Assembly (NCBI GenBank): GCA_944327105.1 | Contig: CALVGN010000040.1 | Coordinates: 4,247 to 68,246, forward strand | Source of the DNA: an uncultured Erysipelotrichaceae bacterium | GTDB taxonomy: Bacteria; Bacillota_I; Bacilli_A; Erysipelotrichales; Erysipelotrichaceae | Reading direction: 5' to 3' | DNA length: 64,000 nucleotides | In this document: positions 1-64,000 of the stretch, one piece after another | Position numbering within the stretch: the stretch's first letter is position 1 | Layout of the letters: every line of letters starts with the position of its first letter | The notes under the pieces: model-generated | Seen by the model: the letters and a program-made list of their open reading frames with translations, nothing else | Database searches by the model: none | Told to the model about the DNA's origin: nothing | Translations under genes and position numbers: made by a program

Positions 1-124
1 TGGAATCGGGATATTTCAGTCCGGCTTCAATGACAAAAATATCATCACCGTCTTCGACGATGAACATGTTTTTGCCGTCTTCATCCAGACCGCCCAATGC
101 AAACAATCTTAATTTGTTACTCAT
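1..124 (-). CDS. rnj: ribonuclease J, N-terminal fragment (gene runs off the window start)
   Basis: The reverse-strand ATG at 124-122 translates to MSNKLRLFALGGLDEDGKNMFIVEDGDDIFVIEAGLKYPDS. This carries the ALGGL-E-GKN...IDAG-K-P signature of the RNase J N-terminus. The start overlaps the miaB stop (ATGAGTAA). Confidence 0.6.
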   Translation of the reverse strand, partial: MSNKLRLFALGGLDEDGKNMFIVEDGDDIFVIEAGLKYPDS

Positions 125-1619
125 TCGTTTCTCCGTTATTGATGGCGATCCCATCGAGTGAATAGGATTTCACTTCCGTGATCTTGACCTGCACTATATC
201 CCCACAATGGATCCCTTCACCGCTAAAATTGACCAATTTGTTATGCCGAGTATAACCACTCCATACATCGTCATTTTTTTTGCTTGGTCCATCCACTAGC
301 ACTTCCACGATCGCATCCTTGTATTTCTGATTATTCAGATTGCTGTAATACGTGATGCGTTCATTGAGCTGCTGCAGCCGTTTTTGCTTTTCGCTAAACG
401 GGATGTGATCTTCCATCTTGGCAGCCGGTGTGCCTTCGCGGGGTGAATAGATGAAGGTGTAAGCCAGATCATACTGGCAGCGATCGACCAAGGATAGCGT
501 GTCTTCAAACTGGGCTTGGGTTTCGTTTGGAAAACCGACGATGATATCCGTGGAAAAGGTCACGTCGGGAATCGCCGTTTTGATCTTGTCGACCAAAGTC
601 AGGTAATGCTCGCGTGTGTAACGTCTGCCCATCAGTTTGAGTATGTCACTGTTTCCGGATTGGACCGGAAGATGAATCGCTGGCATTATATTATCATACT
701 TTGCAATCACCGTGATCATTTCATCCTCAAAATCAAACGGATGTGATGTGGTAAAGCGGATACGGGGGATGCCGGTTAAGGCCACTTGTTCCAAAAGCGT
801 GGCAAATGTGGTTTGACCATCCAGATCCTTGCCATAGGCATTCACGTTTTGGCCTAACAATGTCACTTCCTTGTACCCTTGAGTTTTGAGTTGGTTCACT
901 TCATCGATGATATCTGCCATTTTACGGGAACGTTGCTTGCCACGGGTAAAAGGAACGATGCAATACGTACAAAATTTATCGCACCCATACATGATATGCA
1001 CAAATGCTTTGTGGCGGCTATTGCGTTGTGCCGGCAGATTTTCCACCACTTCACCTTGATTGCTGAGCACTTCGACGGTACGTTCTTTGCTTAAAACCGC
1101 ATTGAGCAACAAATCCGGCAGACGATGGATATTGTGTGTTCCAAAAATCAAATCGACTTGAGGGTACTTGGATAAGATCAGATTCACGGTGGCTTCTTCT
1201 TGGGCCATGCAGCCGCATACACCTAAAATCAAGTCCGGATTGTTGCGTTTGAGTTGTTTAATGGCACCCAGCTGTCCAAAGACTTTATCCTCAGCATTTT
1301 GACGGATCGCACAGGTATTCAGCAGGATCACATCAGCTTGTTCCATCGCATCGGTTTTCGCATATCCCATGCGTTCAAACAATCCGGCTAAAGTCTCACT
1401 ATCGCGTTCATTGGCTGCACAACCATAGGTGCGAATGAAATAATATCGCCCTTTGCCCAGATCGACGGTGGCTTCGGGTAATGAAAAATCGGTACGGAAA
1501 ATCGCATCATCGCCCGGCGTACGGACACGGGCGGCTTTTAAATCAGGAAGGATATAGTTTTTCTTTTTATTCATAGAGATATATTCTATCAGGTTTAAGG
1601 ATGGTTCAACCATAATCAT
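117..1619 (-). CDS. miaB: tRNA-i6A37 methylthiotransferase MiaB
   Basis: 500-aa ORF with an MTTase N-domain (YFIRTYGCAANERDSE), a radical-SAM CxxxCxxC (YGCDKFCTYCIVP) and a C-terminal TRAM-like region. The true start is probably the ATG at 1574 (MNKKKNY). Confidence 0.9.
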   Translation of the reverse strand: MIMVEPSLNLIEYISMNKKKNYILPDLKAARVRTPGDDAIFRTDFSLPEATVDLGKGRYYFIRTYGCAANERDSETLAGLFERMGYAKTDAMEQADVILLNTCAIRQNAEDKVFGQLGAIKQLKRNNPDLILGVCGCMAQEEATVNLILSKYPQVDLIFGTHNIHRLPDLLLNAVLSKERTVEVLSNQGEVVENLPAQRNSRHKAFVHIMYGCDKFCTYCIVPFTRGKQRSRKMADIIDEVNQLKTQGYKEVTLLGQNVNAYGKDLDGQTTFATLLEQVALTGIPRIRFTTSHPFDFEDEMITVIAKYDNIMPAIHLPVQSGNSDILKLMGRRYTREHYLTLVDKIKTAIPDVTFSTDIIVGFPNETQAQFEDTLSLVDRCQYDLAYTFIYSPREGTPAAKMEDHIPFSEKQKRLQQLNERITYYSNLNNQKYKDAIVEVLVDGPSKKNDDVWSGYTRHNKLVNFSGEGIHCGDIVQVKITEVKSYSLDGIAINNGETNE

Positions 1620-1724
1620 CCATGTAAGCGGTTAGATAAAGGAAATTATGGTTTCAATGGTTTAACCATCGATTTTTTCGATTAAAATAATACACGTTTT
1701 ATCAGGAAAGGATGGTTCGACCAT
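1601..1724. repeat. three copies of the 13-nt palindrome ATGGTTNNACCAT in the miaB/phosphatase divergent intergenic region
   Basis: ATGGTTCAACCAT at 1601-1613, ATGGTTTAACCAT at 1657-1669, and ATGGTTCGACCAT at 1712-1724. The last one overlaps the ATG at 1723. Confidence 0.9.
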
Positions 1725-2454
1725 GAATCAGTTTCGTATACTCCATATCCCTCATATGACCAATCTACGTGATCTTGGTGGTTACCAGACCATAGATGGC
1801 AAGATCACCCGCTATGGCCGTGTATTCCGCAGTGACACCTTATCCAATATGGATCCCAATCAGCTCACGGATTTTATTCAAACCAACCACATCAGTGCCG
1901 TCATCGATTTACGCCGACCCAATGAAGGTGGTGACACCAAGTATGCGTTACCAAATGGATGTACCTACCATAACATTCCTTATTGGTACAACATCGCGGA
2001 TGACAAGCAACGCAAAAGTCATGTGGACTTTTCCCAATATACCGTATCTCAGTTTTATATGGCCATGGTATCCCATGGTTGGGACAAGACTATTCCCATC
2101 ATGCATATCATTGCCGATACTTTATCTAAAGGCGAATCGGTTCTGTTTCACTGTACCTTTGGCAAAGACCGTACCGGTATCATCGCCAGTATGGTGTTAT
2201 CCATCGTTGGATGTTATGAAAGTGACATCATGACGGATTATATGATTTCCTTCCCGTTGATCCATAAAAACGAGTTGGAACCATTGATGGACAATACGGA
2301 AGAGAATCGCTTCCAGCGCTCAGATGCCATCAACATGTTCGAATTGATGGAATATTATGATGCCATAAATCTCAAACAGGCGATGCTTGATCATGGTTTA
2401 GATCAAAAAGATCTGGACATTATCGTGCATGAATTGACTGCATCCGTGGAATAA
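1723..2454 (+). CDS. protein-tyrosine phosphatase (Y_phosphatase3-like)
   Basis: 243-aa ORF with the CX5R(S/T) P-loop HCTFGKDRTG. AAAGGA lies upstream of the ATG. Confidence 0.8.
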   Translation: MNQFRILHIPHMTNLRDLGGYQTIDGKITRYGRVFRSDTLSNMDPNQLTDFIQTNHISAVIDLRRPNEGGDTKYALPNGCTYHNIPYWYNIADDKQRKSHVDFSQYTVSQFYMAMVSHGWDKTIPIMHIIADTLSKGESVLFHCTFGKDRTGIIASMVLSIVGCYESDIMTDYMISFPLIHKNELEPLMDNTEENRFQRSDAINMFELMEYYDAINLKQAMLDHGLDQKDLDIIVHELTASVE

Positions 2455-2508: not shown

Positions 2509-2526
2509 TATGTGGTTGGACCACTA

Positions 2527-3441: not shown

Positions 3442-3557
3442 GTTCCTTTCGTTTTTTCTGCGTCAAAGCCATTATAGACGCTTTATAGATTTGACGAAAG
3501 CGTTTTCGCGATGATTTGACCATGATGAGCTTCAAGAAATGGTGATACCATAAAAAC

Positions 3558-4007
3558 ATGATTGTAAATGAAATGAAATCCCATGGGGATCAGGCGGTCG
3601 ATCTGCATCAAATGGAAGGCTACAACTGCACATAATCCATCATTGCCACTTATGCTCCCATCGTTGGATATGATCCAACCATTGCCTATCGGTTTGCCGA
3701 AGGTTTCGGTTCCGGAACCGGACGATTGCAAGGCATGTGCGGGGTGATCAGTGCCGTCACCATGATTCTTGGCTATCTCAACAGTAACGGCAATATGGAA
3801 AGTGCGCAGATGCGCAGCAAAGCAACCACGTATCAGTACACCAGTCGATTCACCAAAGATTTCTTTGACCGTTATTCCACGATCATTTGTTTTGATTTGA
3901 AGCGGCCTCAATTACCCACCTACACACCGTGTACGGATTTGATCCGCTTTGCCTGTCAATGGTTAGACCAATATCTAAAAGAAAAAGACACAGGATCCGT
4001 CAAATGA
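3558..4007 (+). pseudogene. C_GCAxxG_C_C-family (putative redox-active) gene interrupted by an in-frame TAA at 3633-3635
   Basis: One frame reads MIVNEMKSHGDQAVDLHQMEGYNCT*SIIATYAPIVGYDPTIAYRFAEGFGSGTGRLQGMCGVISAV...CFDLK...CTDLIRFACQWL. The stop sits where the family normally has the Gln of YNCAQ. The full length would be 149 aa. Confidence 0.7.
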
Positions 4008-4193: not shown

Positions 4194-4283
4194 AATGAAT
4201 CTAACCTTGATTCAAGTGTAGCGAAACAATACGGTAAGAATTTGTGAAATACATTCGTTTTTATGTGGTTTGACCACAATCTG

Positions 4284-5276
4284 TCAGTCTTCGCTTTTTA
4301 ATTTTCGGCGCATCAGATCGTTGATGGCATCACTGGGTTTTTTGTTTTCGTATAAGATTTTGTAGACTTCTGTCGTGATCGGCATGCTGATGCCACGGCG
4401 TATGGCTTCTTCATAGACGATCTTGCATGCTTTAACACCTTCCACCGTTTTGGTATTGGTGGCCCAGAAATGCTCAGCCGTGTTGTCTTTGCCAATTTGC
4501 AGTCCGGCAGAGAAATTGCGGCTGGAATGGGATGTGCAGGTGACGATCAAATCTCCGATACCGGTCAATCCGAAATAGGTTTCCGGTTCCCCGCCCATCG
4601 CAACGCCATAGCGTCGCATTTCGACCAAGCCACGAGTCATCAATGCCGCTTTTGCATTGTCACCTTGTCCTAACCCGGTCAATATGCCACTGGCGATCGC
4701 TAAAATATTTTTGATTGCAACACCGGCTTCCGAACCGATGATATCACCCGATGTATATACTCTGAAATAATCATTGCTGAACAGTTTCTGCACGGTTAGC
4801 GCTGCATTGGCGTTGGTGGAAACTGCCGCAACACTGGTTAACAGGCGGTTGGCGACTTCAATGGCTAACGATGGTCCAACCAATGCAACCATGGCACGAC
4901 AATGTTTTCCCAATGTGGTTTCGATGACTTCACTCAAGCGCTGATGGGTGTTTGGATCAAATCCTTTCGCCACATTGATGGCAATGACATCATGATCGAG
5001 CATATCCGCCACATTTTTGGCCACACTGGATATGGCAGCTGCCGGAACGGCAAAAAGAATGACGTCACTTTGGTTGACCACGGATAGATCCGTGGTTGCA
5101 TCGATGGCCGCATTGAACACGATATCTCCGAAATAATGCGAATTGGTATGATGCGTATTGAATTCTTCGATAGCCTGCGTATCGATACCCCAAAGATGCA
5201 CCGACGTTGCGTTATCCGCCAGTACTTGGGCCAAGGCGGTGCCCCAGGCACCGCTGCCTAATATGGTCACAACCAT
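4284..5276 (-). CDS. gpsA: NAD(P)H-dependent glycerol-3-phosphate dehydrogenase
   Basis: 330-aa ORF with an N-terminal Rossmann motif ILGSGAWGTALA. The der-gpsA order is conserved. Confidence 0.9.
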   Translation of the reverse strand: MVVTILGSGAWGTALAQVLADNATSVHLWGIDTQAIEEFNTHHTNSHYFGDIVFNAAIDATTDLSVVNQSDVILFAVPAAAISSVAKNVADMLDHDVIAINVAKGFDPNTHQRLSEVIETTLGKHCRAMVALVGPSLAIEVANRLLTSVAAVSTNANAALTVQKLFSNDYFRVYTSGDIIGSEAGVAIKNILAIASGILTGLGQGDNAKAALMTRGLVEMRRYGVAMGGEPETYFGLTGIGDLIVTCTSHSSRNFSAGLQIGKDNTAEHFWATNTKTVEGVKACKIVYEEAIRRGISMPITTEVYKILYENKKPSDAINDLMRRKLKSED

Positions 5277-5278: not shown

Positions 5279-6598
5279 TTATACCTTCTTTCGTACGATG
5301 ATATGGATCGGCGTTCCTTCAAACCCGAATGCTTCGCGCAAGCGGTTTTCGATATAGCGCTGATAAGAAAAATGCATCAGTTTTTCATCATTGACACTCA
5401 GCACAAATGTCGGTGGAGCCACCGAAACCTGCGTCGCGTAATAAATCTTGAGCCGTTTGCCGTTGATGGCTGGTGCGGGTGTAATGAGTTGGGCATCTTG
5501 GATGACTTCATTGAGCACATTGGTGGCAATACGCAATTGACTCGATTGGTATACAGTATTGACCATATCCAATATCTCATTGACCCTTTGTCCACTTTTG
5601 GCCGAAACAAATAGGATCGGCGCATAACTCAAATACACAAACGCATCTTTGATTTTCGAACGGATTTCATCTGCCGTCTTGTCATCCTTTTCAACGGTAT
5701 CCCACTTGTTATAGACGATCACGATCGGCTTGCCGGCTTCATGGGCATAGCCGGCAACATGCTTGTCCTGATCGACGATCCCGCTTTCCCCATCCAGCAC
5801 GAATACCACGACATCACTGCGCTCAATGGCCGACAAGGAACGTAACACTGAATATTTTTCGATATTTTCGTAAACTTTGCCTTTTTTGCGGATCCCGGCC
5901 GTATCGATGCAAACATAATCGATGCCGTTGGCTTGAAACGGTGTATCGATCGCGTCCCGGGTCGTGCCGGAAACATTCGAAACGATCACACGTTGCTGGT
6001 GCAACAATGCATTGACCAGACTGCTTTTGCCGACATTGGGCCGACCGATCAACGAAAAAGCAATGGATCCTTGGTAATCGGGTAATTGGATATCTGAAAG
6101 TGTTGAAACCACACCATCAAGCAAATCACCGATACCGATACCATGCAGACAACTGATCGCCAATGGATCGCCCAAACCCAGTTGGTAAAAATCATAAATG
6201 GCACCGATTTGTGACCCGTCATCGATATGATTGACGGCCAGGATCACCGGCTTGCCGCTTTTGCGCAGCATGCGGGCGATCATCTGATCATCACTGGTCA
6301 CACCTGCCATGCCGTTGGTGACCATGATGATCACATTGGCTTCATCTATAGCAATTTCGACCTGTGCTGCGATCTCTTTGGCAAAGGGTTGATCTTCCAG
6401 CTGGATGCCGCCGGTATCGATCACACGGAACTCACGGGTCAGCCAGCTGGCTTTCCCATAAATGCGATCGCGGGTGACTCCGGCAGTATCATCGATGATG
6501 GATACACGGGTGCCGATCATTCGATTGAACAATGTACTTTTGCCGACATTGGGTCGACCGACTATCGCTACAACACCGCTAATCATGGTGCTCACCAT
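5279..6598 (-). CDS. der: ribosome-associated GTPase Der/EngA
   Basis: 439-aa ORF with two G domains (GRPNVGKSTLFN and GRPNVGKSSLVN) and a KH-like C-terminus. Confidence 0.92.
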   Translation of the reverse strand: MVSTMISGVVAIVGRPNVGKSTLFNRMIGTRVSIIDDTAGVTRDRIYGKASWLTREFRVIDTGGIQLEDQPFAKEIAAQVEIAIDEANVIIMVTNGMAGVTSDDQMIARMLRKSGKPVILAVNHIDDGSQIGAIYDFYQLGLGDPLAISCLHGIGIGDLLDGVVSTLSDIQLPDYQGSIAFSLIGRPNVGKSSLVNALLHQQRVIVSNVSGTTRDAIDTPFQANGIDYVCIDTAGIRKKGKVYENIEKYSVLRSLSAIERSDVVVFVLDGESGIVDQDKHVAGYAHEAGKPIVIVYNKWDTVEKDDKTADEIRSKIKDAFVYLSYAPILFVSAKSGQRVNEILDMVNTVYQSSQLRIATNVLNEVIQDAQLITPAPAINGKRLKIYYATQVSVAPPTFVLSVNDEKLMHFSYQRYIENRLREAFGFEGTPIHIIVRKKV

Positions 6599-7265
6599 CC
6601 CCGGTTTGGGTTTGAATAATATGGATCAGCGTGGTGACGGTGGCATCAAAATCCAATGTACTGGAATCCACCAGGATCGCATCTTTGGCTTGAACCAACG
6701 GTGAATGGATACGCGTCGTATCCTGTTGATCTCGTTTTTTGACATCGTCGAGCACCTGTGCGTACGTACATTCGATCTTTTTTTCTTGATTCTGCAGGTA
6801 TCGACGCTTTGCGCGTTCTTCCACATCGGCCGTTAAAAAGATCTTCACTTCGGCATTAGGCAAAACCACCGTACCGATGTCCCGACCATCCATGATACAA
6901 CCGCCATTGGATGCCATATCCTGCTGCAATGCAACGCAATAATCCCGTACCGGCTGGTAACGGGCGATTGTAGATGCAGCCAAGGATACGTTGTCTGCAC
7001 GGATCAGATCGCCGAGCACTTGACCATTTAGGCGTAATTGGTGAAAGGCATCATAATCGATATGGCAATTGGGTAAATGATGCACCACTGCGGCCTCGTC
7101 AAACGTATCGACATTGGCAATGATCATGCCATAGGCAATGGCACGATACATCGCACCGGTGTCGATATACGTCAGATCCAGTTTCGCGGCAATGGCTTTG
7201 CAGATGGTGCTTTTCCCGGCACCGGAAGGACCGTCGACAGCCACGTTATAGTATGGTCGAACCAT
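6579..7265 (-). CDS. cmk: cytidylate kinase
   Basis: 228-aa ORF with the P-loop DGPSGAGKST. The cmk-der order is conserved. Confidence 0.9.
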   Translation of the reverse strand: MVRPYYNVAVDGPSGAGKSTICKAIAAKLDLTYIDTGAMYRAIAYGMIIANVDTFDEAAVVHHLPNCHIDYDAFHQLRLNGQVLGDLIRADNVSLAASTIARYQPVRDYCVALQQDMASNGGCIMDGRDIGTVVLPNAEVKIFLTADVEERAKRRYLQNQEKKIECTYAQVLDDVKKRDQQDTTRIHSPLVQAKDAILVDSSTLDFDATVTTLIHIIQTQTGDGEHHD

Positions 7266-8239
7266 CAGATCACACCTTTCATCAGCAAAATTGCGTAAAT
7301 GATCACGACCAGGATCACCACCAGGGCAATGACGATCAACACCAGAATAAAATTGACCAGACGAGTATTGTGTCCGACTTTGTCCTCGATATCATCCAGA
7401 TTTTCATCCATTTCATCATACTGCTGCGCCAGACGTACCGCTTGTTTCGCGGTTTGTTCCAAAAGATCCTTCTGACGTTGGGCGGAATTGGAAGACATGT
7501 CAAAGGTCGTATTATCCCGTTTAGTGGATTTAAGTTGCATCAACTGCGGTTCATCATCCACGATCGTTTCAGATTGCGCAGCATCACCCGATGGTGCAAC
7601 CACCGCTGAATCATCATTGAGCAGGCTCTGCAATTCCTGGGTAATGGAATTGCGTTTGTCCAATACCGATGCTTGTACCGCTGCCAATTGCTGTTCATCC
7701 ATCACCGTTTCATGGGTATGGGTCGATGCTGATGCATTGGTTGAACCATTGGCCAAACCATCTTCATACAATGCATTTCCATTTTGATACGCACGGATCT
7801 TCGGTGCATCCGTTTGACTTGTACCATTGTTTGACGCATTTGTGCGTTTGGGTTTGAGTGAAGAAATGATATTGAGTTGGGTATCTTCGTTTTGCGCATA
7901 CCCCTGTTCCACATTGTATTTTTTTACTTCATCCAAAAATTCATCGAGATATTCATTCTTGAACGACTCATTTTTTGCTGATGGGACAACATTGGATGAC
8001 ATGGTCGACCCATGGTTTCCTCTGGCCTGATCCACGGAATCATAGGTGCGCATGCGGGAAGCCACACTGGAATTGGGTGTGGGATTGGACCGAGTGACAT
8101 CCCGAGCCAAAGACGCATCGATGCGATTGAGCCGGTTGCTGAAATCGGCCAGATCATCACTGGCCAGCGATTCTTCATTGCCATATGCGATCTGATTGCG
8201 ATAGGCTTCATATTTTTTCAAGCGGGAAAGTTTCGCCAT
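7265..8239 (-). CDS. hypothetical tail-anchored membrane protein
   Basis: 324-aa ORF. The body is low-complexity and polar or coiled-coil-like. A single C-terminal TM (LVNFILVLIVIALVVILVVIIYAILL) is present. I recognise no family. Its stop shares 1 nt with the cmk ATG. Confidence 0.55.
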   Translation of the reverse strand: MAKLSRLKKYEAYRNQIAYGNEESLASDDLADFSNRLNRIDASLARDVTRSNPTPNSSVASRMRTYDSVDQARGNHGSTMSSNVVPSAKNESFKNEYLDEFLDEVKKYNVEQGYAQNEDTQLNIISSLKPKRTNASNNGTSQTDAPKIRAYQNGNALYEDGLANGSTNASASTHTHETVMDEQQLAAVQASVLDKRNSITQELQSLLNDDSAVVAPSGDAAQSETIVDDEPQLMQLKSTKRDNTTFDMSSNSAQRQKDLLEQTAKQAVRLAQQYDEMDENLDDIEDKVGHNTRLVNFILVLIVIALVVILVVIIYAILLMKGVI

Positions 8240-14259: not shown

Positions 14260-14278
14260 CGATATTCATGGTCTGACC

Positions 14279-17356: not shown

Positions 17357-17359
17357 GAA

Positions 17360-19187: not shown

Positions 19188-19199
19188 ATTAGCAATTCT

Positions 19200-19216: not shown

Positions 19217-19223
19217 AGCATAT

Positions 19224-20536: not shown

Positions 20537-20540
20537 AAAC

Positions 20541-54517: not shown

Positions 54518-54535
54518 ATTTCCTCCTCAACATGG

Positions 54536-55762: not shown

Positions 55763-56490
55763 GCATCGATCACCACCTTTTCGATTTCTTCACGCAATTG
55801 TGTTTTGAGTTCTTCTTCCGGGATCAATTCCAATACCGGAGTGATATACCCTTTGGCTAACAATAAAGTAATGGATTCCATGGTCAAACCACGGGATTGC
55901 AGATAATACAGCTGTTTGGGACTCATGGCACCGATACTGGTGGAATGGGAAGCTGAACAGTTGTAATTGTCGATATACAATGATGGAACCATGGTGACAT
56001 GGTCATGATCGGAAAAAGTGAGGGCACGCAATGCCTGTCGGCATTGCGTATTGTCCGCTTCTTTTTCGATCGTACCAATGGCTTCGATTTTAAAATCATT
56101 GGCTGTATTGATCAGACCATAGTGTTCCATAGTGGATACAGTGGAAAGACCATGGTGGATGATTTCCATTTTCATCGTTTTCTTGGCATTGCCAAGAAAA
56201 CATGAACGGATATTCGTGGTGGCACCATTTTGAAGTGTGATGCGATAGTGCTGATCAATGGATTGATCCTTCATGGAAACAAGGGCAACGTCCAATATTG
56301 AATCGGGTTGGACCATGGCATGAAATTGCACGGAGCGACAGGCATTCAAATCCAATACCAGCGTCACCTGAGAATTGGGTTGAACCATCACATCCAGGTT
56401 GGTGTTACCATTCAATTGCCAATAAACCAATGGTTCAACCACATTCAAATGGTTTTCACCGGAAATAACGATGGGATTACAGATTGCCAT
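55741..56490 (-). CDS. sufD: Fe-S cluster assembly protein SufD (short form)
   Basis: 250 aa counted from the ATG at 56490, which has AAAGGAG 7 nt upstream. It shows a SufB/D beta-helix C-terminal pattern. The ORF track extends the ORF to 56595, inside sufC. Confidence 0.75.
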   Translation of the reverse strand: MAICNPIVISGENHLNVVEPLVYWQLNGNTNLDVMVQPNSQVTLVLDLNACRSVQFHAMVQPDSILDVALVSMKDQSIDQHYRITLQNGATTNIRSCFLGNAKKTMKMEIIHHGLSTVSTMEHYGLINTANDFKIEAIGTIEKEADNTQCRQALRALTFSDHDHVTMVPSLYIDNYNCSASHSTSIGAMSPKQLYYLQSRGLTMESITLLLAKGYITPVLELIPEEELKTQLREEIEKVVIDACLTKLQ

Positions 56491-57304
56491 TGAATGCTCC
56501 TTTGGTGGCACACGTTCCCAATAAACCACTGCTGGTTTTACCATTATTGGACGGATCGATGCCATATTGCCGATAGATCCAGTCATACCCTTCACTGTCG
56601 ATTCGTTCGATCAGATCCTTCTCACCGCTTAAAATGATCGAACCATTGATCAATACATGGACATGACTGGGATGCAGATAATCATAAAAGCGCTTGTAAT
56701 GGGATACCACCAGCATCCCCATTGGGGCTGTCTGGTGAAGATCCAATATGGCGTCCGCCACGAGTTTCAATGCATCCACATCCAACCCACTATCGGTTTC
56801 ATCCAGCATCGCGATGGATGGTTTCAACAATTTCATCTGGACGATCTCATTGCGTTTCTTTTCCCCGCCGCTGAATCCTTGATTCAAAAAACGATGGGCC
56901 AGATCCGGCTTCATTTTCAGATCATGGATGGCACCTTCCATCAACCGATAGAATTCAAATAAACGGATCGGGGATTCCCTTCGGGCATTGATCGCTTCTT
57001 TGAGAAAATCGGAATTGGTCACACCGGGGATCTCGATGGGATATTGCATGGCTAAAAAGATACCGGCTTTGCTGCGCTGATCCACACTCATGGACAGTAC
57101 ATCTTTTCCATCCAACATGATCGAACCATGGGTCACGGTATAATCCGGATCGCCCATGATGGTGGATAGCAAGGTGGATTTTCCATTCCCATTGGGTCCC
57201 ATCAAGGCATGGATCTCCCCACTGTTGACGGTTAGGGAAAGATTGGACAGAATGGGTTTATCATTGACGGATACACTTAAATCTTTGATTTCAAGCGTGC
57301 TCAT
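56477..57304 (-). CDS. sufC: Fe-S cluster assembly ATPase SufC
   Basis: 275-aa ORF with Walker A GPNGNGKST, an ABC signature-like FSGGEKKR, and Walker B AMLDETDSGLD. Confidence 0.92.
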   Translation of the reverse strand: MSTLEIKDLSVSVNDKPILSNLSLTVNSGEIHALMGPNGNGKSTLLSTIMGDPDYTVTHGSIMLDGKDVLSMSVDQRSKAGIFLAMQYPIEIPGVTNSDFLKEAINARRESPIRLFEFYRLMEGAIHDLKMKPDLAHRFLNQGFSGGEKKRNEIVQMKLLKPSIAMLDETDSGLDVDALKLVADAILDLHQTAPMGMLVVSHYKRFYDYLHPSHVHVLINGSIILSGEKDLIERIDSEGYDWIYRQYGIDPSNNGKTSSGLLGTCATKGAFNGNL

Positions 57305-57500
57305 AACTTCTCCTTAATATCATTGAATGCCTGATGATTATAACACTGCCATGGTTGCAACCATGAAATTACTCTCTTTGGGTTGACCAAATGTATATCT
57401 TGATGTGAATGATACGAATAATTTGGTGAAACCATCGGCAACATTGTACTTTTAAGACCATTTGGTTATAATCTTTAACCGTAATTTTAAGGAGGAAAAG

Positions 57501-58571: not shown

Positions 58572-59541
58572 GAAAATCACGATTAGCTTATGTGCATTGA
58601 TCACATTGTCTGCTGGTTGCGCCAGCAACCAGACCACCACGGTTTCCAATGCCACTGAACCCTTCTTTACTGTGGGTGATACCACCATCAGCAAAGGGGA
58701 TATCTACGAATACATGAAATTACAGAATCTAGATAGTGGTATCATCGCCATGGCTGAAACAGATCTGGTCAACCAATTGGTCCCGGTCACGGATGAAATG
58801 AATGCCACGGTGGATGAGCGAGTGGCTGCGGATAAAGAATTATATGGTGAAGAAACATTCTTGACCATGATCAATTATTATGGTTTTGCGGATGAACAAG
58901 CGTATCGGGATGCCTATTTGACCAATATCCAGATCACGGAATTGACCAAACAGTATGTCGAAGACAACTGGGATGCCATGATCGAAAAGTACAACCCACG
59001 CAAAGCGGTGGTCCTATCATTTGTCGAAACGACATCCGATACGGAAAGTGATGAAACCACGGAAGGCGATGAGGCCACCACATCCCAAGCCCAACAGGAT
59101 GCTCAAGCCGCTTATGAAGCATTAAGCAGCGGTGAAAAAGATTTGCAGACCATTATCGATGAATATGATCTGACCGCTGAAGCCGAACCCCAGTTGTATA
59201 CCACGGAAGATACATCCCTGACCAATCTGGTGCGTACCTATATCCAAACCAACCAACCGGGTTATTCCACACCGGTCTATGATGATTCCAATGGTACACC
59301 GACTTACTATGTGGTCTATCTGGCAGATATTGATCCCAACAATTTCAAAGATGAAGTATTAGAAGAGTTGGCAAGCAATAATGCTGTTGCGGAAGAAAGT
59401 GATCAGTATTATCTCAAATCCAATGGATTCTTTGTGTATGATCAGATGATTTTGGATGCCTTACGCACCAATTACAATGATTATTTAACAGAAGAACAAG
59501 CGGTACCGAGTGAAGTGGTTGAAACCACGGCTACTGAATAG
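58561..59541 (+). CDS. lipoprotein, PrsA/SurA N-domain-like, no PPIase domain
   Basis: 326 aa counted from the ATG at 58561 (MRNKKITISLCALITLSAGCASNQ, lipobox-like SAGC). The start overlaps the prsA stop by 11 nt. The ORF-track start at 58468 is rejected. Confidence 0.65.
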   Translation: MRNKKITISLCALITLSAGCASNQTTTVSNATEPFFTVGDTTISKGDIYEYMKLQNLDSGIIAMAETDLVNQLVPVTDEMNATVDERVAADKELYGEETFLTMINYYGFADEQAYRDAYLTNIQITELTKQYVEDNWDAMIEKYNPRKAVVLSFVETTSDTESDETTEGDEATTSQAQQDAQAAYEALSSGEKDLQTIIDEYDLTAEAEPQLYTTEDTSLTNLVRTYIQTNQPGYSTPVYDDSNGTPTYYVVYLADIDPNNFKDEVLEELASNNAVAEESDQYYLKSNGFFVYDQMILDALRTNYNDYLTEEQAVPSEVVETTATE

Positions 59542-59611
59542 ATAAATCAAGGGTATTGACAAAAAGTCATACCCTTTTTTTAATGGTCTTAACCATGAAA
59601 GGACGATATTT

Positions 59612-60004
59612 ATGTGTGTATTCTGCGAAATCATCAATGGAAATATTCCAACCAACAAAGTCTATGAAGATGATCTGACCATGGCTTTTCTGGATCTATC
59701 TCAAACCACCTATGGCCATACCCTGGTCGTACCAAAAAAGCATGTGGATAACTTCTGGGATGCCGATCAATCCACCATCGATGCCGTGATGCATACGGTT
59801 AAAACGGTCAGTGAGTTATTGAAAGAGAAACTTCATTGCGAAGGGATGAACATTTTGACCAACATCAATCCGGTGGCCGGACAAAGTGTGATGCATTTCC
59901 ATGTCCATTTGATCCCTCGGTATGGAAAGGATGATACGATCAAAATCGAATTCAGTGAAAACAAAGTCGATACGAAAGCATTGATGCAAACATTGACTCG
60001 ATAA
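59612..60004 (+). CDS. hit: HIT-family nucleotide hydrolase
   Basis: 130-aa ORF beginning MCVFCEIINGNIP, with the histidine triad HFHVHLIP. Confidence 0.9.
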   Translation: MCVFCEIINGNIPTNKVYEDDLTMAFLDLSQTTYGHTLVVPKKHVDNFWDADQSTIDAVMHTVKTVSELLKEKLHCEGMNILTNINPVAGQSVMHFHVHLIPRYGKDDTIKIEFSENKVDTKALMQTLTR

Positions 60005-60036: not shown

Positions 60037-60070
60037 TTGGTTGAACCATAGTTAAGTGATTTGATCACGA

Positions 60071-63000
60071 TTATTGGATTTCGATCAAATACTGCAGATG
60101 ATAATCGGTATTCTCTTGGACACAATATTGATCCAATGTCTGGGGTCCATTCGATCCATTCCCCACACCTCGCATGAAAGCATCCAGGATCAATGTGTTG
60201 GTTTCATTGGGTATCAATTCATGCCAATGCGAAGCATTGGCAATATCCAATGGATCATTGGTTTCATAAGTAAATCCCAATGGATTGGCCATGGTAAAGG
60301 AAATCATGGTTGAACCATCGGATAATGCAAGATGATCCACATCGAGCTTATGTTCACTGGTTTGCGGTGTCAGATAGACTTGTTGGTACTGACCGATGGT
60401 TTGCGTGTATGTACCATAAATGGCACTTTGACGACGATCAGTGTAATGATCATATTGACCATAGCCTTGATAGGTATAGGTATCATAGGATGGATCGACA
60501 TGCCACTTGGTTCCAACCAGGGGTAATGGACCATTGGTAGTGGTTTTACCCGTTGATATAGTGGTATCCACCAATAACGACGAACCATTGAATGTATAAG
60601 TGGTATGCGTAGATATATCCAAAGATGTATATGTGATATCAAAAGATATCCTGATCGAACCATCCTCTTGATGGTTTAAACCATACTCTACCGTATGGGG
60701 ATAATCGTTTTGGATCAATTCCACATTCAATAATGGATCATTATCGATCGGTGCACGGTATAACTGAAGATATCCACTGTCCGTAAAGATGGTTGAACCA
60801 TTGACATCAAACGTAGTCAATATCCCTATGGTCGTATCAAAGGATACAGTGGTTGAACCATCTGCACTACTCAGGGTAATGGTTCCATCCCCTTGTTCCA
60901 CTTCAACATTTCCTGCCGATAATTTCAATTCGATCGGAGTCCGTGACACTTCCAGTTGTTCAAAAGCGATCCATTGCGAATGGGGGGCATCTTTTGTGTA
61001 AACATATGCCTGGATGATCGTAGTATGACCATCGGAATAAGGAGTTATCGTATACGAACAAGACTTTCCGGCAGCACAATCCAATTCAAATTGCTGTGTA
61101 TGGATGGTCGTACCATCCTGGATCGTGATGATTTCCAAGATCATCCCGTTTAATGATTGCGTAGGATAATGATTGGTCAACGTAACGGTGGTTTCATCCA
61201 TCTGGATTTCGATCGGACTGTATACCGCCTTTAATTCCAGTGCTTCGCTTTGCAACGACCGATCGGCACTGACGATCCCGTTACCGCAGAAATTTCCGTC
61301 GTTGAGCACTTGTCCCCAATCACTCCCGTTACCGAAATAACAGATACCCTCTTGACACGTGATGATCGACTGATCCGCAAAATCCCAGACGAACCCGCCG
61401 GCAATCCCGTGTGTTTCAATGGCTTCCATGTAGTCGTTGAAATTGCCCAATCCATTGCCCATGGCATGGGCATATTCTTGTTGAACATAAGGAATATCAT
61501 AGGTTTCATTCATTTCAACCATCTCATCAATGGATAGATACTGGCTGCTGGCGATATCGACCATACTGGTTTCACGCGTTTTTCCGACGCGATTGTCGCG
61601 CTCATACATGCGAAGTCGCGTTGGGTCTTTTTTTAATACATGTTTGGCGATCACATAAAATCCATAATCATCATTCAATGCATATTCACTATAGGTACTT
61701 TCATTGCCGTACGACCAAATGATGATGGACGGATGATTGATGTCCCGTTCGATCATATTGTCAATGCGTTGCATCATTTGATCCGTATACGCCGGATTAT
61801 TGCCCGGGATACCCAGTTCCACAGCTCCCCCATGGCTTTCGATATTGGCTTCATCAATAAGCAATAGTCCCAATTCATCGGCCAAATCATACGTCAAAGG
61901 ATCATTGGGATAATGGGAAAGACGGATGGCGTTGATATTCAAGGATCGGATCAATTGAAGATCCTGGATGATGGTTTCGTGAGTCAAAGCTTTGCCCCGA
62001 TCGGGATCCATTTCATGGCGATTGATACCATTGAGTAAGGTGGCATGACCATTGATATAAATGGTCGAATCATCCCATGTCAATTCTCGAAATCCGATAC
62101 GAATGACATTGTAAAGGGATTGATCATCTACCACTGTGATCAATCGATACAGATATGGTTCATCGATATTCCATAAATGAACGCGTAGATCATCAAAGGA
62201 TAAAGTGGTTTCAACCATAGAAGCATTGGCGGTATAAGTAGCCGATGCACTGGCGATGGTTTGACCATTGGTATCCACCAGATAAGCTTTCAATTCATGG
62301 TTTTTACCATCACTGCCATACAATGTGACATCCACCTTCATATCAATGGACGAACCATAGGAAATATGGGTTTCAATATCATACACACTGCTCGATCCCA
62401 TCTGGATAATGGATACATCCCGGAATATGCCAAACAAGCGGATCATATCCTGATTTTCCAGATAACTGCCATCTGCATATTGATACACTTCCAACGCAAT
62501 GGTATTACTCCCTTGATGAATATACGGAGTAATATCAAAATCACTGGGGCCATAGGAATCTTCACTGTATCCGATGCATTGCCCATTGATATACACATAA
62601 AATGCACTGGCGACACCATCAAAATGAAGGATATAGTGCTGGTTGGGATCATAAGAATCAACGATGAATTCCCGTTTATAATGCCCCACTCCATTTTGTG
62701 ATGTAGCAGCGACGGGCAACCCGTCGCCCCCATATTGAATGGTTTCCGTATTCAACCATGGATACGTATTGTTGATATACAATGGCGCTTGATAAACAAA
62801 TTCCCCATCATCACCTTTTTCGGTTTGCACACAATGGGGAACCGTCAATGTATCCCATCCAATCGTGTCCCAGTTTTCCGTATAGGACGTGATAGACGAA
62901 CCCGTATAACCACGAAGCCGATCAGTTGGTCGATCGACATAGTAAAAAGACCACGATCCATTGAGGTCGATATATCGGGATGAGATCGATTGATCGATCT

Positions 63001-63286
63001 CATCCAATACCGTATCACTAGCTAAGATCGCATCATCCAATGAATCGTAGTATTCCATGGATGCATGGGGCGACAATTCATTGATCGAAAAGACTTGATG
63101 TTGGTCGTACCACGCTTCACCAATAAATTCTGTAGTCGTCGGATAAACCGATTGAGATTGCTGCAACACATCGGGATCAAGCGTCGGTTCACTTTCCACA
63201 GTGTAACTGATCGAACCATCAGTGGTCGCACATGCACATGCCATGGTCAAAACCATGGCATGGATCAAAACTTTAGTTAATTTCAT
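60071..63286 (-). CDS. GH2-family beta-galactosidase with N-terminal signal peptide
   Basis: About 1071 aa counted from the ATG at 63286 (MKLTKVLIHAMVLTMACACATTDG). It has the acid/base region NHPSIIIWSYGNES and the nucleophile region QQEYAHAMGNG, as in LacZ. The ORF track extends the ORF to 63346. Confidence 0.85.
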   Translation of the reverse strand: MKLTKVLIHAMVLTMACACATTDGSISYTVESEPTLDPDVLQQSQSVYPTTTEFIGEAWYDQHQVFSINELSPHASMEYYDSLDDAILASDTVLDEIDQSISSRYIDLNGSWSFYYVDRPTDRLRGYTGSSITSYTENWDTIGWDTLTVPHCVQTEKGDDGEFVYQAPLYINNTYPWLNTETIQYGGDGLPVAATSQNGVGHYKREFIVDSYDPNQHYILHFDGVASAFYVYINGQCIGYSEDSYGPSDFDITPYIHQGSNTIALEVYQYADGSYLENQDMIRLFGIFRDVSIIQMGSSSVYDIETHISYGSSIDMKVDVTLYGSDGKNHELKAYLVDTNGQTIASASATYTANASMVETTLSFDDLRVHLWNIDEPYLYRLITVVDDQSLYNVIRIGFRELTWDDSTIYINGHATLLNGINRHEMDPDRGKALTHETIIQDLQLIRSLNINAIRLSHYPNDPLTYDLADELGLLLIDEANIESHGGAVELGIPGNNPAYTDQMMQRIDNMIERDINHPSIIIWSYGNESTYSEYALNDDYGFYVIAKHVLKKDPTRLRMYERDNRVGKTRETSMVDIASSQYLSIDEMVEMNETYDIPYVQQEYAHAMGNGLGNFNDYMEAIETHGIAGGFVWDFADQSIITCQEGICYFGNGSDWGQVLNDGNFCGNGIVSADRSLQSEALELKAVYSPIEIQMDETTVTLTNHYPTQSLNGMILEIITIQDGTTIHTQQFELDCAAGKSCSYTITPYSDGHTTIIQAYVYTKDAPHSQWIAFEQLEVSRTPIELKLSAGNVEVEQGDGTITLSSADGSTTVSFDTTIGILTTFDVNGSTIFTDSGYLQLYRAPIDNDPLLNVELIQNDYPHTVEYGLNHQEDGSIRISFDITYTSLDISTHTTYTFNGSSLLVDTTISTGKTTTNGPLPLVGTKWHVDPSYDTYTYQGYGQYDHYTDRRQSAIYGTYTQTIGQYQQVYLTPQTSEHKLDVDHLALSDGSTMISFTMANPLGFTYETNDPLDIANASHWHELIPNETNTLILDAFMRGVGNGSNGPQTLDQYCVQENTDYHLQYLIEIQ

Positions 63287-64000
63287 CTTCACTTTTAGAT
63301 TTTGGTTTATAGAAGCGTCGATTATCCAGTGCAAACATCCGTTCACTAAACGTCCCTGCTTCCGTTTTTGACAATAAGGACGTCATCATATCCATCTTGG
63401 CATCGATGTTATCGATATAATACAAAATTTCTGCTTCCATCAATTGGGGCCGTACCGGTGAACCATACTCATATTGCCCATGATGGGAAAGGATCAAATG
63501 TCGCAACAATAATGTCTGCTCTTGATCCCCAACTCCACATTGATCCGCGATTTCCATCAATAACCCATGCATGATGGAGATATGACCGCATAGATTTCCT
63601 TCCGCAGTATATTGTGTAGCAATGGGGGAATCCAATTCATACAGTTTACCGATATCGTGGCATAACACTCCGGATATCAATAGATCCCGATCCAATTGGG
63701 GATAAATATCACAGATGGCATTGGCCAATTTGATCATCCCGGATACGTGTGTGGCTAAACCACCGTAGAAATTGTGATGATTGCGACTGGCCGCGGGATG
63801 CGAAAAGAAATCGGTTCCGGCGCGTTTGAAGATCGCTTCCACCAGTTGATGATACACGGGATCTTGGATCTGTTCATAGGCAGCACGAATGGTTTTTTTC
63901 AATTCATCCGTAGCGATCGGTGATTTTTGCACATATTGACTCAAATCCACACTACGTTGGTCCAACGCACGCACAGCATTGATGCGCATTTGCAAGGCGT
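63273..64000 (-). CDS. yhaM: 3'-5' exoribonuclease YhaM (HD domain), C-terminal part; N-terminus lies beyond the window end
   Basis: Contains the HD-domain motifs HHNFYGGLATH, LCHDIGK and SHHG. The frame stays open to position 64000. Confidence 0.75.
   Translation of the reverse strand, partial: ALQMRINAVRALDQRSVDLSQYVQKSPIATDELKKTIRAAYEQIQDPVYHQLVEAIFKRAGTDFFSHPAASRNHHNFYGGLATHVSGMIKLANAICDIYPQLDRDLLISGVLCHDIGKLYELDSPIATQYTAEGNLCGHISIMHGLLMEIADQCGVGDQEQTLLLRHLILSHHGQYEYGSPVRPQLMEAEILYYIDNIDAKMDMMTSLLSKTEAGTFSERMFALDNRRFYKPKSKSEDEIN

Follow-up and report, generated by a model that had tools for sequence, protein, structure and literature searches.

Genome-wide signature words are so far known mainly from the cyanobacteria, as the highly iterated palindrome HIP1, and from Haemophilus and Neisseria, as the uptake signal sequence (USS) and the DNA uptake sequence (DUS). 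The origin and function of HIP1 are still debated after 30 years. In cyanobacteria HIP1 (GCGATCGC) reaches 300–2700 copies per Mb, with ratios of observed to expected counts (O/E) of 55–228, and it has now been linked to natural transformation, both experimentally and phylogenetically. It is conserved between genomes beyond codon effects (PMC5861425), and USS and DUS are present in 1471 and 1892 copies per genome (PMC2817400). The subject of this report is an interrupted palindrome, TGGT-N3-ACCA or TGGT-N4-ACCA (N3 and N4 copies), that is scattered through a 64-kb stretch of DNA (the window; 44.7% G+C) from an uncultured, Erysipelotrichaceae-like gut bacterium of the Bacillota. It works at the level of the DNA, as a recognition word peculiar to one lineage. 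Its copies are formed where they stand, by point substitutions and not by transposition, and are then lost again, and a directional force holds them far above the level that mutation alone would give, filling most of the positions that the proteins tolerate. The cost of this accumulation is paid in codon choice and in some amino-acid changes. In the library searched, no paper describes this word as a genome-wide repeat.

A regular-expression count gives 86 N3 and 50 N4 copies in the window, 136 in total or 2.1 per kb; the same arms at spacers of 0–2 and 5–15 nucleotides occur 0–8 times each, and the everted arrangement ACCA-Nk-TGGT 2–13 times. An earlier note on this DNA had called the word hyper-abundant and its spacers of 0–2 and of 5 or more rare. 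Both statements hold, the first more strongly than claimed, the counts given there (about 70 N3 and 38 N4 copies) being too low. Markov models fitted to the window, in which the motif's own contribution is already included, predict about 1 copy per spacer class at orders 0–1, about 5 at orders 3–4 (with a maximum of 14 in 40 simulations), and 15.5 (N3) and 6.6 (N4) at order 6. As with words of the HIP class, this short palindrome stands more than one order of magnitude above Markov expectation. An unbiased scan of all 4-mer dyads at spacers of 0–12 found only the TGGT/ACCA dyad comparably enriched in the window, and no HIP1-like excess. Once full copies are masked, the half-sites fall to background (O/E 1.03 for TGGT and 1.01 for ACCA); the enriched unit is the inverted dyad, and half-sites alone are not enriched.

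The consensus A-TGGT-Y-N(1-2)-R-ACCA-T was derived from 24 strictly intergenic copies in four species (N3:N4 = 18:6). It bears out an earlier description of the arms as extended by Y/R and flanked by A...T: the inner ends of the spacer are Y...R in about 70% of copies, the −1 position is A in 56–68%, and the +1 position is T in 56–60%. Two 11-mers that the same description had counted 15 and 11 times are each present 14 times, as TGGTTSAACCA and as TGGTTTGACCA/TGGTCAAACCA; 13 of the 15 and 10 of the 11 positions were exact (25834 becomes 25824, 49301 becomes 49291, and 32997 is an N4 copy), as were those of three perfect 14-mers. Sequences one base removed from the word number 222 in the window, where control spacers give about 120. 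Most of this surplus comes from TGAT/ATCA (74 versus 25.6), GGGT/ACCC (19 versus 4.4), TGGA/TCCA, and TGGC/GCCA, the transition TGAT..ACCA / TGGT..ATCA being the most enriched.

Beyond the ±1 positions the flanks are close to background composition. Intergenic copies have no longer sequence in common and the flanks of genic copies are likewise unrelated, and thus the word is not a mobile element. In codon alignments the copies appear as substitutions rather than insertions and add no length relative to orthologues. A mobile repeat of the REP or MITE (miniature inverted-repeat transposable element) type was rejected on these grounds and because 85% of the copies are intragenic.

Three observations concern the fine structure of individual copies and of other repeats. 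A 19-bp perfect palindrome, TCGATGGTTTAACCATCGA, lies at 39904–39922 beside an A-run and contains a copy of the motif; a related copy at 1658 is followed by TCGATTTTTTCGA. Covariation between positions −3 and +3 is weak (P = 0.0006), and a subset of longer palindromes such as that at 39904–39922 may contribute to it. The pattern GATC-N8-GATC occurs 27 times in the window (for example at 38269, 49807, and 62984) where 9 are expected; with a period of 12 nt, it looks less like a second motif than like a codon-periodic effect of GAT/ATC.

Open reading frames (ORFs) were called mechanically; a greedy set classifies 92% of the window as coding, and a stricter mask was used to count strictly intergenic copies. 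Inside the greedy ORFs lie 116 of the 136 copies, with 20 outside, and 18 are strictly intergenic by the stricter mask. Spacers were earlier said to hold about 22 of some 110 copies in about 6% of the window; the excess is real, but the figures become 18–20 of 136 copies in about 7.6%, an approximately 2-fold excess (P = 0.004–0.014), or 3.8–4.1 copies per kb in spacers versus 2.0 in ORFs. All three reading frames are used, as had been noticed, and the frame that reads TGG as Trp is rare (8 of 116). The strand of the gene has no effect on density (1.8 and 2.0 copies per kb), and a polar word of the Chi/KOPS type, for which asymmetry and strand skew are expected, was rejected for this palindrome.

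Within genes, the ORF copies (71 N3 and 48 N4) far exceed the 12.3 ± 3.0 and 13.4 ± 3.0 obtained from synonymous-codon shuffles, and codon-order shuffles yield about 2 of each. The collapse to 2-fold or less that might have followed from such controls did not occur. Where the encoded peptide is compatible with the word, the word is usually present: 70 of 108 N3 contexts and 46 of 59 N4 contexts in the window are realised (65–78%), compared with 3 of 34, 0 of 21, and 4 of 33 at the control spacers N2, N5, and N6 (0–12%). In three other motif-bearing species the N3 fractions are 30/44, 21/29, and 24/25, so that the four species together span 65–96%, while relatives give 0/5 to 0/15. The compatible contexts are themselves 3–5 times commoner in the clade, at 2.8–3.8 per coding kb versus 0.5–1.1 in relatives. 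From the excess over shuffles, the share of contexts realised, and the frequency of the contexts, it follows that the motif has shaped the choice of codons as well as the peptides encoded.

The highly conserved genes for RNase Y, recA, ftsZ, and rpsD hold 0–1 copies each, and copies favour weakly conserved residues: identity to the orthologues of a motif-free sister lineage (L226, described below) is 27% at arm codons versus 53% elsewhere. At residues conserved among the outgroups, the window has the consensus at 9 of 14 motif positions, a small sample, versus 87% elsewhere. The stretch 16981–21922, correctly singled out before as lacking copies, is devoid of the word and includes a strain-variable island, the only strain-variable insert seen, which is copy-free. 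At about 1 copy per kb or more, with intragenic copies at tolerant positions and recently acquired DNA lacking them, the word resembles USS and DUS.

It might still be asked whether ordinary causes could suffice, the word being a by-product of composition or codon usage, a small mobile element, or the operator of a FadR/NagR-type regulon. GGT, ACC, and CCA are indeed common codons, the use of frames is biased, and the string equals a known operator; but a 4- to 35-fold excess is left by the Markov and codon-preserving controls, the same arms at control spacers are at background, relatives of similar GC lack the word, and copies with unrelated flanks add no length to ORFs. A regulon of GntR type would be expected to have a limited number of promoter sites; 136 sites in 64 kb, 116 of them in ORFs, are not a regulon. 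We regard these causes as refuted by the tests run and give them next to no credence. A restriction-modification site was also rejected: a fixed length and avoidance by the host are expected of it, but here there are two spacings and a strong excess.

Comparison of orthologues shows how the copies come and go. In codon alignments of 16 orthologous genes from the four motif-bearing species, some sites are common to all four and many are specific to one. Gains occur even in otherwise dissimilar stretches, N3 and N4 forms replace each other at the same place, and for many gains several substitutions are required. At one-off sites, changes between species fall on all four arm positions, with about 40% transversions, a distribution that argues against one hyper-mutable methyl-C position.

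Copies are also retained in excess. Retention was scored as the keeping of all eight arm bases and was compared with phase-matched control positions in the same genes. Between the window and the relatives L087, L088, and L089 it is 0.80, 0.48, and 0.44, with 0.51, 0.14, and 0.10 for the controls, and between L088 and L089 it is 0.64, with 0.13 for the controls; the excess is 1.6–5 times, with P from 3e-4 to 3e-8 across the four comparisons. At arm codons, synonymous codon identity exceeds that of other codons (0.88 versus 0.75 for L087, 0.73 versus 0.60 for L088), while amino-acid identity is lower (0.67 versus 0.78 for L088, 0.61 versus 0.76 for L089). Presence in both coding and non-coding DNA, and conservation between related genomes beyond codons, are features of the HIP class. 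The proposal that the force acts on DNA and not on proteins has thus survived codon-preserving shuffles and is borne out by the use of three frames, the roughly 2-fold denser spacers, the bending of codons and peptides, and retention beyond phase-matched controls.

The distribution of the word was traced in 64 kb of the focal genome and 9–22 kb of each relative. An identical RecA is encoded on the metagenome-assembled genome (MAG) GCA_949294825.1 and on several animal-gut metagenome contigs in ENA, with DNA 97.5–99% identical to the window; these near-identical contigs carry the same copies (L001, for example, keeps 33 of 34 window copies). With one representative genome per species, the best relatives by RNase Y are only 63–64% identical and comprise Erysipelotrichaceae MAGs, Solobacterium, Bulleidia, and Holdemania. 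None of 80 loci from such relatives has the word (0–0.12 copies per kb). A PriA search returned only four close homologues; L087, L088, and L089 (PriA identity 94%, 58%, and 59%) carry the word at 2.1–3.6 copies per kb, with the same N3 > N4 spectrum. A search with RlmN led to an intermediate lineage, the nearest sister found, L226 and L227 (72–74% identity, both 33% G+C). L226, from a 553-kb contig, shows synteny with the window, and L227 spans a portion of this run of genes; together they have zero copies in 27 kb. Different hyper-abundant dyads, or "dialects", were sought in the 80 loci and the sister lineage, and none was found. The word is thus restricted to a small clade that comprises four or more lineages at the level of species. 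The G+C content is 42–45% in the motif-bearing clade and 33% in the syntenic motif-free sister, a shift in composition that coincides with the appearance of the word.

Beyond the window, another strain (L225) has 5 copies in 2.4 kb past its left end, and a 5-kb segment specific to L087 has 9 copies. A look-up of the protein at the right end, aimed at extending the sequence, gave no match. Three scans of IMG/VR with double or triple motif patterns returned only chance matches or local N3-only tandem repeats; their sensitivity was low, the strictest pattern matching the window itself only twice. A metagenome scan yielded, among the matches listed, unrelated N3-only repeats and no further members of the clade. 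The scan matches, including L219, L215, L346, and L385, are unrelated local tandem repeats of the N3 form only; they come from environmental metagenome contigs and viral contigs, several of them giant-virus MAGs, and are not the dispersed N3+N4 signature.

How might the word be read? One answer would be a single-stranded signal: a 4–5 bp hairpin, (A)TGGT/ACCA(T) with a loop of 3–4 nt, formed in RNA, or in DNA exposed as single strands while it is replicated, conjugated, or taken up in transformation, and bound by a hairpin-specific protein. A loop needs 3–4 nt to be stable, spacers shorter than 3 are missing, and the hairpin is predicted to form at −2.5 to −4.0 kcal/mol. The stem is marginal, however (z-scores −0.9 to −1.8), and among all 4-mer dyads no other stem sequence shows enrichment. 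The preferences for A(−1) and T(+1) do not depend on each other, with 90 complementary pairs versus 84.6 expected (P = 0.18), so that extension of the stem is rejected for want of covariation. Nor does a hairpin explain the Y...R preference inside the loop or the absence of N5 and longer loops, which could also fold. We consider this explanation very unlikely. A single enriched stem, a marginal hairpin, and flanks without covariation favour two half-sites read independently on duplex DNA over a base-paired stem.

The two spacings offer a hint as to the reader. TGGTNNNACCA is a box of the PdhR/FadR/LldR type, and GTGGTCTAGACCAC is the dre site of NagR/DasR. The separation of GG and CC in the present word is exactly 5 nt in N3 and 6 nt in N4. 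In complexes of GntR-family proteins two arginines of the winged helix-turn-helix read the GG pair, and the half-sites are spaced by 5 nt for FadR, by 6 for NagR, and by 6 or 8 for AraR (PMC4333415). Because the dual spacing matches these operators, a GntR-type dimer with loosely tethered DNA-binding domains is a reasonable candidate for the reader; no gene for one was seen in the window.

Such a dimer could also have turned into a nucleoid protein. The copies would then form a binding-site array for an abundant chromosome-organising or self-marking protein, with selection acting on the overall density of sites, for compaction, segregation, or protection of the cell's own DNA, and not on single sites. 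The independently read half-sites, an operator geometry identical to those of FadR (N3) and NagR (N4), the acceptance of two spacings by the GntR protein AraR, the retention across species above controls, and the higher density in spacers are all consistent with this proposal, and HIP1 has been argued to serve chromosome structure (PMC5861425). It is harder to see how the benefit of one site among thousands, which should be very small, could override protein sequence, yet the window departs from conserved residues at motif positions as described above. Neighbouring copies are clustered rather than evenly spaced (coefficient of variation, CV, 1.28), and a preferred spacing of about 56 bp, hinted at in the window, was not reproduced in L088 or L089 (P = 0.135). 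Clustered spacing and the lack of short-range periodicity across species thus provide no support for a regular architectural array. We know of no nucleoid-protein site at this density inside genes, and we rate the array as unlikely, if a serious rival.

Methylation and repair offer another route to the same pattern. Elhai reportedly proposed methyl-directed repair for HIP1. By analogy, an orphan DNA methyltransferase, a mismatch-correcting nuclease, or both, acting in the manner of very-short-patch (VSP) or methyl-directed repair, would recognise the dyad and correct near-cognates towards the perfect word. Palindromes are typical methyltransferase targets, and the leading one-off variant, TGAT..ACCA / TGGT..ATCA, is the expected decay product of a methylated C. 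The effect of HIP1 on transformation is methylation-dependent, and the abundance of HIP1 goes with CGATCG and GATC methyltransferases (PMC4390886). Two spacer lengths would be unexpected for a methyltransferase or a Vsr-type enzyme, however, and a drive of the VSP type should deplete the T-variant, yet it is enriched. Since losses and gains affect every arm position, include transversions, and in many cases require several substitutions, the evidence speaks against both simple T:G very-short-patch repair and one hyper-mutable methyl-C. The window contains neither a methylase gene nor a Vsr gene. This account, too, is a serious rival that we would assign a low probability. The earlier note had listed a HIP1-like palindrome, a dimeric nucleoid-protein site, an uptake-type sequence, and a methylation- or repair-linked site; the shortlist was the right one, and the present data single out none of the four, although a simple methyl-cytosine/VSP model is now weakened.

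The mechanism we place first is a molecular drive of the USS/DUS/HIP1 type. A dimeric protein, with its gene somewhere outside the window, would recognise the dyad in duplex DNA, the geometry of the dyad being that of the operators of GntR-family winged-helix proteins. DNA carrying the word would be favoured in uptake, in recombination between members of the clade, or in both; alleles that create the word would spread, and alleles that destroy it would be replaced. To our knowledge, no words but USS, DUS, and HIP1 are as dense as this within genes, and HIP1 is the only palindrome comparable with the present one. In uptake sequences, as analysed by Findlay and Redfield, tolerant positions are nearly saturated, the encoded peptides are in excess, weakly conserved residues are preferred, and newly acquired DNA lacks copies (PMC2817400). 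The pattern in the window matches this description. It is this match, together with the links between HIP1 and transformation, that leads us to rank a transformation- or recombination-linked drive above the two serious rivals. As a whole, the combination of recognition word, dimeric reader, and uptake or recombination drive is a tentative explanation, to which we would give somewhat less than an even chance.

Several points weigh against the drive. Known uptake sequences are asymmetric and of fixed length, and we know of no precedent for a palindrome with two spacings as an uptake signal, nor of any uptake specificity in the Bacillota. The copies are clustered, not evenly spaced. Neither a reader protein, nor a competence gene, nor a methylase was seen in the window, which holds housekeeping genes only, and the resemblance to GntR systems is limited to operator geometry. 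Four strains (window 9952–32146 versus L001–L003) give no sign of frequent recombination over 8.3 kb: all 51 informative single-nucleotide polymorphisms define one bipartition, with no four-gamete violation, in a test of low power, and the density of polymorphisms across the four strains is close to Poisson. Finally, spread through the whole genome is extrapolated from the 64-kb window, the 2.4 kb to its left, the syntenic loci of three species, and the 5-kb segment of L087.

The word may belong to a previously unrecognised self-DNA recognition system in the Bacillota, in which a two-headed reader, of GntR type or of another, tolerates both spacings and marks the clade's own DNA for uptake, recombination, or protection, some two sites per kb having been written since the split from the motif-free sister. 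This is speculative, and we think it doubtful. Were it true, it would provide the first HIP/USS-like word outside cyanobacteria and Proteobacteria, and because the clade is young the origin of the word could be traced gene by gene.

Some features of the surrounding genes may be recorded here. The gene priA is among the most motif-dense in the window (Table 1). PriA evolves unusually fast, with 58% identity within the clade and 25% to the sister lineage; its neighbours RlmN, PrkC, and FtsZ are 87–94% identical within the clade. A 226-residue protein encoded just upstream of priA (region 49860–52581) has no Pfam match and is 83–96% conserved. The strain-variable island (19111–22145) lies between tRNA-Pro (19111–19187) and recA. 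It contains an ORF for a PBECR3/PBECR2 nuclease at 20159–20614 (−), preceded by a skipping-rope RNA (RF02924) at 20584–20686 (−). In five other strains about 330 bp stand in place of 19617–21141, which is kept in one (L004). A T-box leader (39600–39835, −) lies upstream of a metNIQ-like ABC transporter (36986–39551), and the + strand ORF at 39611–39892 in the mechanical list is probably spurious.

Table 1. The dispersed array, its longest gap, its tracked gene, and its individual copies, in window coordinates (N3 copy, TGGT-N3-ACCA; N4 copy, TGGT-N4-ACCA; the strand of copies is given as ".")
Feature	Position	Strand	Sequence or remark
Dispersed array, 136 copies (86 N3 + 50 N4)	1..64000	.	2.1 copies per kb
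Longest stretch without copies, holding the RNase Y gene, tRNA-Pro, the strain-variable island and its PBECR3 nuclease gene, and most of recA	16981..21922	.	
priA, 10 copies (4.9/kb), site tracking across species	49860..51914	-	
N3 copy	809..819	.	GTGGTTTGACCAT
N3 copy	1602..1612	.	ATGGTTCAACCAT
N3 copy	1658..1668	.	ATGGTTTAACCAT
N3 copy	1713..1723	.	ATGGTTCGACCAT
N4 copy	1776..1787	.	TTGGTGGTTACCAG
N3 copy	1929..1939	.	GTGGTGACACCAA
N3 copy	2513..2523	.	GTGGTTGGACCAC
N3 copy	3540..3550	.	ATGGTGATACCAT
N3 copy	3960..3970	.	ATGGTTAGACCAA
N3 copy	4266..4276	.	GTGGTTTGACCAC
N3 copy	4872..4882	.	ATGGTCCAACCAA
N4 copy	5264..5275	.	ATGGTCACAACCAT
N4 copy	6586..6597	.	ATGGTGCTCACCAT
N3 copy	7254..7264	.	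ATGGTCGAACCAT
N3 copy	7592..7602	.	ATGGTGCAACCAC
N3 copy	7738..7748	.	TTGGTTGAACCAT
N4 copy	8331..8342	.	ATGGTCATGACCAT
N4 copy	8431..8442	.	ATGGTATCCACCAC
N3 copy	8957..8967	.	ATGGTGATACCAC
N4 copy	9332..9343	.	ATGGTTTCAACCAC
N3 copy	9878..9888	.	ATGGTTGAACCAA
N3 copy	10305..10315	.	ATGGTAAAACCAG
N3 copy	11712..11722	.	CTGGTCGAACCAT
N3 copy	13013..13023	.	GTGGTCAAACCAT
N4 copy	14005..14016	.	TTGGTGATCACCAC
N3 copy	14269..14279	.	ATGGTCTGACCAA
N3 copy	15130..15140	.	ATGGTTTGACCAT
N4 copy	15255..15266	.	ATGGTCTATACCAT
N3 copy	15617..15627	.	ATGGTTCAACCAT
N4 copy	15676..15687	.	ATGGTCCCAACCAA
N3 copy	16003..16013	.	ATGGTAAGACCAT
N4 copy	16636..16647	.	GTGGTGATGACCAC
N3 copy	16754..16764	.	ATGGTCCAACCAT
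N3 copy	16894..16904	.	GTGGTTTCACCAT
N3 copy	16970..16980	.	ATGGTGAGACCAC
N3 copy	21923..21933	.	GTGGTTTTACCAC
N3 copy	22810..22820	.	ATGGTTCAACCAT
N3 copy	24391..24401	.	TTGGTTCCACCAT
N3 copy	24556..24566	.	ATGGTTCAACCAT
N4 copy	24763..24774	.	CTGGTACCGACCAT
N4 copy	24965..24976	.	ATGGTCAATACCAT
N3 copy	25073..25083	.	TTGGTCGCACCAC
N3 copy	25824..25834	.	TTGGTTCAACCAC
N3 copy	26043..26053	.	TTGGTTCAACCAT
N3 copy	27652..27662	.	ATGGTCGGACCAT
N4 copy	27975..27986	.	ATGGTTTCAACCAT
N4 copy	28428..28439	.	ATGGTTTTGACCAT
N4 copy	29653..29664	.	ATGGTAAAAACCAT
N3 copy	30030..30040	.	ATGGTAAAACCAA
N3 copy	30675..30685	.	ATGGTTTGACCAT
N3 copy	31331..31341	.	GTGGTCGAACCAA
N4 copy	31424..31435	.	ATGGTCAATACCAA
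N3 copy	31499..31509	.	ATGGTATAACCAT
N3 copy	31904..31914	.	GTGGTCTGACCAC
N3 copy	32132..32142	.	ATGGTCTTACCAT
N4 copy	32996..33007	.	ATGGTTTCAACCAT
N3 copy	33464..33474	.	TTGGTATAACCAT
N3 copy	33716..33726	.	ATGGTCAAACCAT
N3 copy	33883..33893	.	CTGGTCAAACCAA
N4 copy	34132..34143	.	TTGGTTCGAACCAT
N4 copy	34224..34235	.	ATGGTCAGGACCAC
N3 copy	34862..34872	.	GTGGTTAAACCAC
N4 copy	35394..35405	.	TTGGTTAAAACCAG
N4 copy	35746..35757	.	ATGGTTGATACCAT
N3 copy	35802..35812	.	ATGGTCAAACCAT
N4 copy	36024..36035	.	ATGGTTTGAACCAA
N4 copy	36148..36159	.	ATGGTTTCAACCAC
N3 copy	36302..36312	.	ATGGTGAAACCAT
N3 copy	36772..36782	.	ATGGTTGGACCAT
N4 copy	36831..36842	.	ATGGTGGATACCAT
N3 copy	37492..37502	.	ATGGTATCACCAA
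N3 copy	37720..37730	.	GTGGTGATACCAT
N4 copy	38379..38390	.	ATGGTCAAAACCAC
N4 copy	38430..38441	.	CTGGTCAAAACCAT
N3 copy	38972..38982	.	ATGGTCAAACCAA
N3 copy	39212..39222	.	TTGGTCAGACCAC
N3 copy	39851..39861	.	ATGGTACGACCAA
N3 copy	39908..39918	.	ATGGTTTAACCAT; within 19-bp perfect palindrome 39904-39922
N3 copy	41451..41461	.	GTGGTATCACCAT
N4 copy	41657..41668	.	ATGGTATTGACCAT
N4 copy	42397..42408	.	ATGGTTGAAACCAC
N3 copy	42420..42430	.	TTGGTCAAACCAT
N4 copy	42948..42959	.	ATGGTCATCACCAC
N3 copy	44025..44035	.	ATGGTAATACCAT
N4 copy	44179..44190	.	CTGGTCAAAACCAT
N4 copy	44381..44392	.	ATGGTTGAAACCAT
N3 copy	44505..44515	.	ATGGTCATACCAT
N3 copy	45759..45769	.	CTGGTTCGACCAT
N3 copy	48407..48417	.	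GTGGTCGTACCAT
N4 copy	48699..48710	.	GTGGTTTCGACCAA
N4 copy	48808..48819	.	GTGGTTTCAACCAG
N3 copy	49291..49301	.	GTGGTTTGACCAA
N3 copy	50124..50134	.	GTGGTAAGACCAT
N3 copy	50253..50263	.	GTGGTAAGACCAC
N3 copy	50591..50601	.	ATGGTTTTACCAC
N3 copy	50701..50711	.	CTGGTAATACCAT
N4 copy	50747..50758	.	TTGGTGGAAACCAT
N4 copy	50951..50962	.	ATGGTGTCAACCAC
N3 copy	51086..51096	.	GTGGTTAGACCAT
N3 copy	51369..51379	.	ATGGTTGGACCAC
N3 copy	51487..51497	.	ATGGTTCAACCAT
N3 copy	51794..51804	.	ATGGTCTTACCAA
N3 copy	51951..51961	.	TTGGTCAAACCAT
N4 copy	52035..52046	.	ATGGTCTTGACCAT
N4 copy	52243..52254	.	ATGGTTCAAACCAT
N3 copy	52322..52332	.	ATGGTGATACCAT
N4 copy	53967..53978	.	ATGGTTTTGACCAC
N4 copy	54047..54058	.	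ATGGTCCGCACCAT
N3 copy	54313..54323	.	ATGGTACAACCAA
N3 copy	54533..54543	.	ATGGTCATACCAT
N3 copy	55229..55239	.	ATGGTTGGACCAC
N4 copy	55449..55460	.	ATGGTTCAAACCAT
N3 copy	55881..55891	.	ATGGTCAAACCAC
N3 copy	56217..56227	.	GTGGTGGCACCAT
N3 copy	56400..56410	.	TTGGTGTTACCAT
N3 copy	56431..56441	.	ATGGTTCAACCAC
N3 copy	56533..56543	.	CTGGTTTTACCAT
N4 copy	57352..57363	.	ATGGTTGCAACCAT
N3 copy	57424..57434	.	TTGGTGAAACCAT
N4 copy	59516..59527	.	GTGGTTGAAACCAC
N4 copy	59584..59595	.	ATGGTCTTAACCAT
N3 copy	59724..59734	.	CTGGTCGTACCAA
N3 copy	60038..60048	.	TTGGTTGAACCAT
N3 copy	60307..60317	.	ATGGTTGAACCAT
N4 copy	60508..60519	.	TTGGTTCCAACCAG
N4 copy	60562..60573	.	GTGGTATCCACCAA
N4 copy	60672..60683	.	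ATGGTTTAAACCAT
N3 copy	60790..60800	.	ATGGTTGAACCAT
N3 copy	60850..60860	.	GTGGTTGAACCAT
N3 copy	61105..61115	.	ATGGTCGTACCAT
N4 copy	62206..62217	.	GTGGTTTCAACCAT
N3 copy	62257..62267	.	ATGGTTTGACCAT
N4 copy	62269..62280	.	TTGGTATCCACCAG
N4 copy	62298..62309	.	ATGGTTTTTACCAT
N3 copy	63102..63112	.	TTGGTCGTACCAC
N4 copy	63244..63255	.	ATGGTCAAAACCAT

Words this dense inside genes are rare, and the present case lies in a different phylum. Its bipartite architecture points to a specific class of reader, and the existence of a few motif-bearing species beside a syntenic sister with zero copies makes the question testable, since comparison of their genomes should yield a short list of genes for the reader or the driver. 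The word also shows how strongly a force at the level of DNA can bend a proteome, and in practice it is a sharp marker, of use when these genomes are binned or checked for foreign DNA.

Among described repeats, REP/BIME and the RAYT- or Ssn-associated NTS/dRS3 elements are likewise abundant and palindromic. Those repeats, however, are 20–40 bp long, lie outside genes, carry their flanks along when they spread, and are linked with the gene of a cognate nuclease or transposase, whereas the present word is 11–14 bp long, mostly intragenic, and without shared flanks; hairpin repeats of the Ssn/NTS kind are a different kind of element. The operators of GntR-family regulators (TGGT-N3-ACCA for FadR/PdhR/LldR, and the dre site TGGT-CTAG-ACCA for NagR/DasR) share the arms of the word and its two spacings, and members of the family differ in the spacing that they use. 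A genome holds between a few and some tens of such operators, placed at promoters, in contrast to projected thousands per genome here, 85% of them intragenic, and the N4 copies show no preference for the NagR-type centre CTAG.

The likeness to USS of the Pasteurellaceae and DUS of the Neisseriaceae is closer. Shared features are a density of about one copy per kb or more, many intragenic copies with a bias of frame, enrichment of the encoded peptides, a preference for poorly conserved residues, the absence of copies from recently acquired genes, and a build-up of copies through point mutations that a drive favours. USS and DUS differ in being asymmetric 9–12-mers of fixed length, whose bias in uptake has been shown experimentally; the present word is a variably spaced dyad, and the small strain sample gave no signal of recombination. 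HIP1 resembles it in being a short palindromic word (here at about 2100 copies per Mb) that is found in genes and spacers, is clade-wide with exceptions, is conserved beyond codon conservation, has common one-off variants, and is of debated function. In contrast to HIP1, however, the Bacillota word is unrelated in sequence to GCGATCGC, is interrupted, with two spacer lengths and free central bases, embeds no GATC or CGATCG-type methylase target, and belongs to a clade of few species that is narrow and young where HIP1 is phylum-wide. By analogy, then, the word is best classed as a genome-wide iterated recognition word of the HIP1/USS kind, new in its phylum and in its bipartite architecture with two spacings.

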